Origin: an uncultured candidatus Porisulfidus sp.
GTDB taxonomy: Bacteria > Pseudomonadota > Gammaproteobacteria > Poriferisulfidales > Poriferisulfidaceae
DNA: 64,000 nucleotides
Assembly: GCA_965199755.1 (NCBI GenBank)
Contig: CBDASZ010000001.1
Location: 608,001 to 672,000, forward strand
Direction: 5' to 3'
Made by a program: the position numbers and the translations under genes. The notes under the pieces were generated by a model. The model saw nothing but the letters and a program-made list of their open reading frames with translations, did no database searches and was not told where the DNA came from. This document shows positions 54,710 to 55,802 of the stretch, in pieces (the stretch's first letter is position 1; each line of letters opens with the position of its first letter).

Positions 54710-55323
54710 TGGAAATCAAGACACGCGATACTGCGGCGGCCGTCACACTGGCGGATGCCTGCTTTGGCGTCCCGTTTCACCAAGCGCTGGTGCATCAGGC
54801 GGTGACCAGCCATGCGCAGCGCGGCCGTGCCGGCAGCGCGTCGCAGAAAACCCGCGCGGAAGTTCGTGGCGGTGGCGCCAAGCCCTGGCGGCAGAAAGGC
54901 ACCGGGCGGGCTCGCGCCGGCTCGATTCGCTCGCCGATCTGGCGGGGCGGGGGTGCTGCACATCCGGCGGGCGGACAAAACTTCAAAGGTAAACTCAACA
55001 AGAAGATGTATCGCCATGCGATGCGTTCGATTGTATCGGAACTGCTGCGCCTGGAACGGCTGCATGTGGTGGAATCCTTCGCGATCTCCGAGCCGAAGAC
55101 CAAACTGGCGCAAGCCGAACTGGCGCGCCTTGAACTATCGAATGTGCTAGTTCTAGTGGATGAACTGGAGCCGAACACTGCGCTGGCGATGCGCAATATG
55201 ACCCAATGCGAACTACGCGAAGCGAGCCGGGTTGATCCGATCTCACTGCTGCGCTATGAGCATGTGGTGTTGACGCGCGCGGCACTGACCGTGCTGGAAC
55301 AACGCCTCGGAATCGAATCATGA
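54706..55323 (+). CDS. rplD: 50S ribosomal protein L4
   Basis: KPWRQKGTGRARAGS, SPIWRGGG. Confidence 0.98.
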   Translation: MMEIKTRDTAAAVTLADACFGVPFHQALVHQAVTSHAQRGRAGSASQKTRAEVRGGGAKPWRQKGTGRARAGSIRSPIWRGGGAAHPAGGQNFKGKLNKKMYRHAMRSIVSELLRLERLHVVESFAISEPKTKLAQAELARLELSNVLVLVDELEPNTALAMRNMTQCELREASRVDPISLLRYEHVVLTRAALTVLEQRLGIES

Positions 55324-55802
55324 GCATAAAGAGCAGGATCGGCAATCTCTTCGGTCGCAAGAAAGCGGCACCGGAGCAGCCTGAGCGTGCCGTAGAGGAA
55401 GCGCCGGCCGCTGCCGTTGCCGAGCAGCAACCCAAGGAGCCGGAAGCGCGCGCGGTCCCCGCGGCGTCGAAACCGAAGAAACGCAAGAAGCGCGCCGTCG
55501 TCGATCGACCGGCATGCAGCACGCAGCGCGTGAATTACATTTTGCGCCGCGCGCATGTGTCGGAGAAGACTGTGGATCTGGCGAACAAGATGAGACAGCA
55601 TACCTTTGAGGTTGCGCCGGACGCGACGCGCGAGGAAGTCAAGGTGGCGGCCGAGCAGTTGATGGGCGTGAAGGTGAGCGAGGTACGCATCAGCAATGTG
55701 CATGGCAAGCGCAAGCGCAATGGCACCCGATCTTCCTGGCGCAAGGCATTGATCATGCTTGAGCCCGGACAGGATCTCGACATGATGGAGGCGGGATCAT
55801 GA
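55320..55802 (+). CDS. rplW: 50S ribosomal protein L23 with long N-terminal extension
   Basis: Core [26 protein letters not shown] coupling to the rplD stop. Confidence 0.95.

Follow-up and report, generated by a model that had tools for sequence, protein, structure and literature searches.

An N-terminal arm on ribosomal protein uL23 of Porisulfidus: a possible membrane leash at the tunnel exit in a lineage that appears to lack the signal recognition particle

Examination of a 64,000-nucleotide stretch from an uncultured candidatus Porisulfidus sp. (Gammaproteobacteria; GenBank assembly GCA_965199755.1, contig CBDASZ010000001.1, positions 608,001 to 672,000 of the forward strand; hereafter the window) reveals that its rplW gene codes for an unusual version of the ribosomal protein uL23, in which the canonical body is preceded by an N-terminal arm made up of a short cationic amphipathic tip, a Glu/Ala/Pro-rich spacer and, as a third part adjoining the body, a basic stretch. 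The arm is a lineage-specific extension of uL23, and comparisons with related genomes show that it is translated, disordered and under purifying selection in the lineage. Its function we infer from sequence and genomic context: we tentatively propose that the arm could tie the ribosome to the membrane as a leash, with a function analogous to that of mL45/Mba1 in mitochondria, a possibility to which we would give clearly less than an even chance.

The uL23 arm: start codon, anatomy and distribution

The ribosomal protein genes of the window occur in the order uS10-uL3-uL4-uL23-uL2-uS19-uL22-uS3-uL16, with rplW between rplD and rplB (Table 1); uS10, uL4 and uL23 were named by their Pfam matches, and the remaining genes of the operon by translation and order. 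The Pfam L23 profile matches the window protein with 74.1 bits, against a cut-off of 30.8, and does so over amino acids (aa) 74-154 only. Similarly, the 53 distinct sequences of solved bacterial uL23, which are 82-116 aa long, align to query residues 67-159, most of them beginning at chain residue 2-6 opposite query residue 67-70, and none of them offers a counterpart to aa 1-66. In the 100-aa solved chain found in 400 entries, chain residues 5-96 are aligned with query residues 69-156, which places the His of the HVSEK docking motif (H79-K83 in the window protein) near residue 15 of an ordinary uL23. The initial annotation of this DNA, which had described a 160-aa uL23 with the motif displaced from about residue 15 to residue 79, was thus accurate on this point. 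Within the genus the docking motif is either HVSEK or RMSEK, with the S, E and K invariant. The shortened tunnel loop of the window protein is likewise common to same-genus uL23, whereas other families of the order keep the long form.

The start of the long version was evaluated in a set of 40 genomes of relatives, 15 of them from the same genus. uL23 was located in 14 of these 15, the genome without it being 76% complete, and in all 14 loci 50-61 extra residues stand ahead of the canonical N-terminal helix (EERLSQVIL). The coupling of the long start to the uL4 stop as ATGA (GTGA in one case) is seen at 15 of 15 loci including the window, the uL4 C-terminus being conserved, and a GGAGG-like run is found 8-10 nucleotides upstream of that start in most same-genus relatives. 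The competing view is that the arm is not made at all: translation would begin at V71, an internal GTG, and the open frame ahead of it would be an accident of GC-rich DNA. An in-frame GTG is indeed present at 55530, and long spurious open frames are common in the GC-rich region. However, nine of the 14 relatives have no in-frame ATG, GTG or TTG 9-55 codons before the docking motif, so that in these a full-length uL23 body is possible only from the far start. Furthermore, no Shine-Dalgarno-like purine run precedes the V71 GTG in the window sequence, and a start there would cut away part of the canonical N-terminal helix. All 14 relatives keep the open frame together with its coupled start and the tip, the arm recurs in 45 protein clusters (see below), and insertions and deletions come in multiples of three. 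The ratio of nonsynonymous to synonymous differences (pN/pS) is also below 1: in four close pairs, the values being taken from these as the distant pairs are saturated, the tip gives 0.24-0.52 (on few sites), the linker 0.30-0.39 and the core 0.14-0.28. The short-start alternative is therefore close to excluded, and the ATGA-coupled start favored by the initial annotation can be taken as the real one.

Table 1. Coordinates of rplW, the parts of its product and the other features discussed (positions are those of the window)
Feature	Position	Strand	Remarks
rplW (uL23), 160 aa including the arm	55320..55802, stop codon included	+	PF00276, E 1.2e-20, aa 74-154
rplD (uL4)	54646..55323	+	ends in the TGA of the ATGA at 55320-55323
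ATGA overlap of uL23 start (ATG) and uL4 stop (TGA), translational coupling	55320..55323	+	
Tip, aa 1-15, cationic amphipathic segment	55320..55364	+	best 11-mer hydrophobic moment 0.56, charge +3
Spacer, aa 16-50, Glu/Ala/Pro-rich, predicted disordered	55365..55469	+	AlphaFold2 confidence score (pLDDT) <50 for aa 12-61
KPKKRKKR basic patch, aa 51-58	55470..55493	+	read from sequence
In-frame GTG (V71), alternative short start, rejected	55530..55532	+	8 codons before the HVSEK motif
Canonical uL23 body, aa 68-160	55521..55799	+	pLDDT >90; HVSEK docking motif at 55554-55568
uL23 tunnel-loop region, aa 130-140	55707..55739	+	shorter by 4 residues relative to the best solved homologue
rpsJ (uS10), basic Lys/Pro/Ala-rich N-terminal extension of ~25-33 aa (53692-53790, aa 1-33)	53692..54078	+	Pfam S10 starts at aa 34
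rpsQ (uS17), 162 aa, acidic Glu/Ala/Pro/Thr-rich C-terminal tail of ~80 aa (58823-59065, aa 82-162)	58580..59068	+	

The tip, spacer and KPKKRKKR patch that had been read in the arm initially are all present in the window protein. Across the 45 arm-bearing clusters the arm measures 44-75 aa (median 60), of which the conserved tip accounts for 11-16 residues. The tips fall into several sequence families, namely MSMFGKIKGLFKGKPK, MKNPFAWLGRLFGRKPKP, MSFLKKIKGLFGSKPK, MSLFGKLFGWMKPK and the window's own type, which is represented in its closest relative by MSKFTDRVRSLFRRKAK. All of these have hydrophobic residues at positions i, i+3/4 and i+7 and Lys/Arg flanks, and they usually end in (K/R)P(K/R); a hydrophobic pair followed by basic residues and then by Pro or Lys is a motif of 41 of the 45 clusters. 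The hydrophobic moment (muH; Fauchere-Pliska scale, best 11-mer), whose computation had been proposed along with the first description of the arm, is 0.56-0.88 (median 0.64) in 45 of 45 clusters, and the charge is +1 to +4. When a hidden Markov model (HMM) of the tip was run against the open frames of the genome, uL23 alone was matched (E 2.3e-4; next best E 0.76), ruling out that the tip is common to other proteins of this genome. A partly duplicated tip (for example ..DKIKGLPDKFKGLFKSKPK..) is seen in the clusters P0022 and P0029, which suggests that the tip may grow by tandem duplication.

The spacer is composed to 64-93% of Pro, Ala, Glu, Lys and Arg, and its length and sequence vary freely. 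Thus, members of the clade combine a tip that stays cationic and amphipathic with a variable spacer, the pattern that the initial annotation had put forward for examination. The basic patch had also been likened to a nuclear localization signal, an analogy that we reject, since KPKKRKKR lacks conservation: among the 45 clusters it occurs in the window protein only, even P0045, the closest relative, has KVAKPAKPKQKAEP in its place, and other relatives show KPAKPKPAP..KK or R/A/P-rich stretches at this position.

To establish the phyletic spread of the arm, a profile of the 14 same-genus uL23 was compared with clusters of 5.8 billion proteins, giving 1628 matches among 8000 scored candidates. 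The best 120 of these matches are bimodal in both length and E-value: 45 clusters, the window's own included, bear the arm (137-168 aa, E 1e-76 to 1e-45), and the other 75 are 95-124 aa long with E 4e-32 or weaker. A profile of the arm by itself recovered two proteins from 1.84 billion representatives, both of them uL23 of the arm-bearing type, and the ESM Atlas gave no usable match; the arm is thus ruled out as a widespread module. Those carriers that are named come from uncultured candidatus Porisulfidus sp. or from sponge-derived gammaproteobacterial metagenome-assembled genomes. Of 15 loci from the order's other families, the motif pattern resolved 12 (all but L017, L021 and L025), and every one of these encodes a short uL23 of 98-105 aa. 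Outside the arm-bearing set, P0053, P0072 and P0089 are uL23 versions of 122-124 aa with a Lys/Arg/Ala/Ser/Thr-rich N-terminal extension of ~25 aa and no amphipathic tip. No earlier account of an N-terminal arm on bacterial uL23, or of this group having lost its signal recognition particle (SRP), was found in the literature searched, outside which lie most subscription journals.

Membrane-targeting factors in the genome, genus and order

The genome to which the window belongs (G000) consists of four contigs with no N bases and is 98.9% complete. It encodes trigger factor (tig) with an intact GFRPGHVP signature, as well as YidC and SecA; the open reading frame (ORF) that follows uL15 at 63062 is, going by its position, presumably secY. 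However, of the genes that the initial annotation had named for checking, only tig and yidC are accounted for, whereas ffh and ftsY were not found, and nor was the 4.5S RNA: G000 has no match anywhere to PF00448 (GTPase domain common to FtsY and Ffh), PF02978 (M domain of Ffh) or RF00169 (4.5S RNA). Searches for FtsY in G000 with the proteins of five relatives reached a best E of 0.8 with tblastn and of 0.34 with an HMM made from them. Likewise, no remnant of ftsY was seen near the ABC ATPase at C1:800400, a candidate ftsE; a permease-like ORF of 415 aa precedes this ATPase, and the two look like a different transporter pair. A true MinD, sought as an internal comparator, was not detected in G000 either, the best match to TIGR01968 scoring 58.8 bits against a cut-off of 212.9, and this MinD-like protein (G000:C2:303540-304271) is probably a ParA-like ATPase.

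The same absence extends to the genus. PF02978 is found in none of the 15 other same-genus genomes, eight of which are single contigs, and PF00448 in one, where the match (L117, G010:C50:7532-9654) is to a 210-aa piece resembling FtsY that lies at a contig end. The genome concerned has no Ffh M domain, the larger ORFs of the contig have no match in G000 at E <=1e-5, and the fragment may be foreign DNA in the bin. As a control of sensitivity, 14 of 14 control genomes were positive; in a sample of the class PF00448 was detected in 145 of 149 genomes outside the genus (143 of 147 when the unpublished G079 and G180 are left aside), usually with 2-4 matches per genome and even in one of 0.4 Mb. Together these observations, which are absent matches cross-checked in four ways and in closed genomes, indicate that the SRP appears to have been lost in the genus. 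Given that trigger factor and YidC are present and the SRP was not found, it is plausible that some other way to the membrane is needed.

Only six of the 40 relatives of the order (in g5, g7 and g10) have both PF00448 and PF02978, so that the apparent loss of the SRP is wider than the distribution of the arm. Examination of YidC across the order shows that the ORFs end 7-15 residues after a conserved QQ(W/Y/S) motif at 30 of 30 loci (L112, G000:C1:69663-73196, and L156-L184); none of the 30 has an extended ribosome-binding C-terminal tail, whether or not the SRP is present.

Candidate functions of the arm

In E. coli the docking motif of uL23 is situated on the rim of the tunnel exit, a docking place shared by trigger factor, SRP, SecA and SecY; the Glu of VSEK is a contact of trigger factor, and uL23 is also contacted by SRP, SecA and the C5-loop of SecY. 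PMC4602035 mentions cross-links of uL23 to SecY, FtsY and SecA and cites work on SRP and L23. Since the arm joins the protein immediately ahead of the N-terminal helix, at a distance of ~12 residues from this motif, it would emerge at the exit rim. From such a position, a disordered leash of 30-55 residues should be able to reach over several nanometres.

These contextual connections lead us to place the membrane leash first among the possible functions, as it brings together an FtsY-like tip, a variable leash, attachment at the exit, a lineage without the SRP or a YidC tail, and the precedent of mitochondria. The tip would bind the anionic surface of the inner membrane reversibly, in the manner of the membrane-targeting helices of the FtsY/MinD type, with the spacer as a leash several nanometres long. 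In this way ribosomes, and above all polysomes by virtue of avidity, would be held near the membrane with the exit turned towards it, and SecYEG or YidC could be reached by hydrophobic nascent chains during translation with no part played by Ffh and FtsY. In its strongest form, which we think doubtful, the ribosome itself would carry the membrane address, the FtsY-like lipid-binding tip on the exit leash replacing targeting by SRP and FtsY. The N-terminal helix of FtsY has been described as an autonomous membrane-binding element (Parlitz 2007 and Stjepanovic 2011, as cited in PMC4602035). In five SRP-bearing relatives of the order, the N-terminal helices of FtsY have muH 0.60-0.65, their muH and charge being in the same range as those of the arm tips; the SecA N-terminus, also considered as an amphipathic comparator, was discarded with a best 11-mer muH of only 0.43.

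Several observations weigh against this proposal. The tip of the window protein, with muH 0.56, is the weakest of its family, and a crude set of 1285 ORF N-termini of the genome has its 90th percentile of muH at that same value; muH of at least 0.56 together with a charge of at least +3 is found in 1.7% of this set, so that the signature is not rare. The physico-chemical signature of the tip is hence suggestive, not diagnostic. Moreover, the tip is short, often Gly-rich and present once per ribosome, which would make the single-copy affinity weak. AlphaFold2 models the body of the window uL23 with confidence but leaves the arm disordered, with a mere 4-residue helix at aa 4-7 (pLDDT ~53), and in a consensus-type protein it predicts no tip helix and pLDDT <50 at aa 16-45. 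As background to these models, membrane-targeting amphipathic helices often fold only on lipid. The distribution of the arm adds to the difficulties: members of g2, g3, g6 and g8, genera in which no SRP gene was found, have a short uL23, and in the four other same-class genomes without a PF00448 match there are just 13-14 residues before the docking motif (11-12 in G047). The arm can accordingly be ruled out as a general companion of SRP loss. In the order YidC is also without an extended C-tail, in arm-less genomes without SRP matches too, and no complementary solution is visible there. Finally, two other ribosomal proteins of the window bear tails that lie far from the exit, as considered below. 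These tests either go against a simple link between the arm and the loss of the SRP or do not help it. The idea of a built-in tether between ribosome and membrane, first raised in the initial annotation, is therefore supported in part, by the conserved tip and the context of an SRP that was not found; the AlphaFold models, on the other side, give no stable tip helix, and the uL23 of other genomes without SRP matches is arm-less.

The tails in question belong to uS10 and uS17 (Table 1), whose genes share with that of uL23 the contiguous ribosomal protein cluster of the window; in E. coli rpsJ, rplW and rpsQ all belong to the S10 operon. All 14 same-genus loci keep the N-terminal extension of uS10, in the form MAAPKKKA...; the other families lack it. 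The uS17 of relatives aligns only over aa 1 to ~81-117, and the acidic C-terminal tail may, from this alignment, be variable or specific to the window genome. A general tendency to grow tails is thus conceivable, and with it the alternative that the uL23 arm is a generic disordered extension, which aids rRNA binding or assembly or is nearly neutral and has no membrane role, its tip being kept for constraints of translation initiation or for contact with rRNA. Many ribosomal proteins of organelles, archaea and eukaryotes carry terminal extensions. The predicted disorder of the arm would fit such an extension, as would the fast evolution of the window uL23 throughout its length (pN 0.31-0.36 in the core) and the shorter Lys/Ala-rich N-extensions without an amphipathic tip in P0053, P0072 and P0089. 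Nevertheless, just two open frames in the entire genome, those of uS10 and uL23, contain Lys/Pro/Ala-rich windows, which speaks against a compositional drift of the proteome; Glu/Ala/Pro-rich windows are found in seven open frames. Further, the amphipathic pattern is kept across tip families as different as MSMFGKIKGLFKGKPK, MKNPFAWLGRLFGRKPKP and MSLFGKLFGWMKPK, a sign that the protein and not the mRNA is under selection, and conserved aromatic and aliphatic residues would be unusual in an rRNA-binding tail. On this evidence we consider a generic extension somewhat less probable than the membrane leash.

A further alternative is that the arm folds back on the ribosome as a gate or plug of the exit site, with the tip filling the rRNA-lined vestibule of idle ribosomes, or else binding, or competing with, one of the factors for which uL23 is a docking site (for example trigger factor, SecA or the deformylase/aminopeptidase). 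In mammalian mitoribosomes the N-terminal extension of mL45 occupies the exit vestibule. The attachment of the arm directly before the docking motif would suit a gate, and both trigger factor, with its signature intact, and SecA are encoded in the genome. Equally, the strongly basic tip suits rRNA, its conserved hydrophobic face is also compatible with a protein-protein contact, and the genus also has an altered tunnel loop, shortened by 4 residues. On the other hand, the variation in arm length (44-75 aa) and the duplicated tips of P0022 and P0029 suit a loose leash more than a fixed intramolecular arrangement, and AlphaFold places the arm nowhere on the uL23 body. We regard a gate or plug as slightly less probable than a generic extension.

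Implications and comparison with known systems

The SRP is regarded as universal and near-essential, and yet here is a free-standing lineage with genomes of 1.4-2.0 Mb that is apparently without it. If the SRP has truly been dispensed with, the question arises of how membrane proteins still insert co-translationally, and one concrete and testable candidate is the conserved leash at the exit, with its tip of lipid-binding-like character. Such a leash would mirror mitochondria after their loss of the SRP. Were it to replace targeting by SRP and FtsY, the lineage would provide the first case in bacteria comparable to the permanently tethered mitoribosome and would constitute a natural experiment on how the SRP can be lost. 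Even if no tether exists, the clade shows selection acting on an extension of a bacterial ribosomal protein at the place on the ribosome where docking is busiest, and the apparent loss of the SRP across much of an order merits a study of its own.

The arm-bearing uL23 has the fold, body, position between rplD and rplB and docking motif of canonical bacterial versions, such as those of E. coli and Pseudomonas; it differs from them in aa 1-66, which have no counterpart there, and in the tunnel loop, which is 4 residues longer in the best solved homologue. The uL23 of eukaryotes and archaea (L23a/L25) likewise bears a basic low-complexity N-terminal extension, there with a nuclear localization signal, but the arm profile finds no match outside the bacterial clade and there is no nucleus to enter; to our knowledge the amphipathic tip has no counterpart in eukaryotic uL23. 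There is a physical resemblance to FtsY, whose N-terminal helix (and, in long forms, acidic A-domain) similarly place a short terminal cationic amphipathic segment before a flexible charged region. The arm, however, has no NG GTPase domain (PF00448) and no detectable homology to FtsY, and it sits on a ribosomal protein and not on a receptor. More generally, the tip resembles the targeting helices of MinD, FtsA and FtsY in being terminal, positively charged, high in muH and borne on a flexible linker, its membrane binding being a prediction.

Among systems that couple ribosomes to the membrane, some bacterial proteins of the YidC family do so by means of ribosome-binding C-tails, and mL45/Mba1 is a separate protein with a fold of its own. 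PMC8321541 describes mitochondria without the SRP as tethering their ribosomes via the Oxa1 tail, Mba1/mL45, Mdm38 and Mrx15. YidC/Oxa1 tails thus represent another SRP-free coupling, but with the opposite polarity, a membrane protein reaching for the ribosome, and no such YidC tail occurs at the 30 loci of the order. With mL45/Mba1 the arm has no homology that could be detected, Pfam returning only PF00276 for the window protein and the ESM Atlas no usable match. The proposed likeness is one of task: both would hold the tunnel exit at the membrane in an SRP-less system, mL45/Mba1 as a separate protein and the arm as a disordered extension of uL23.

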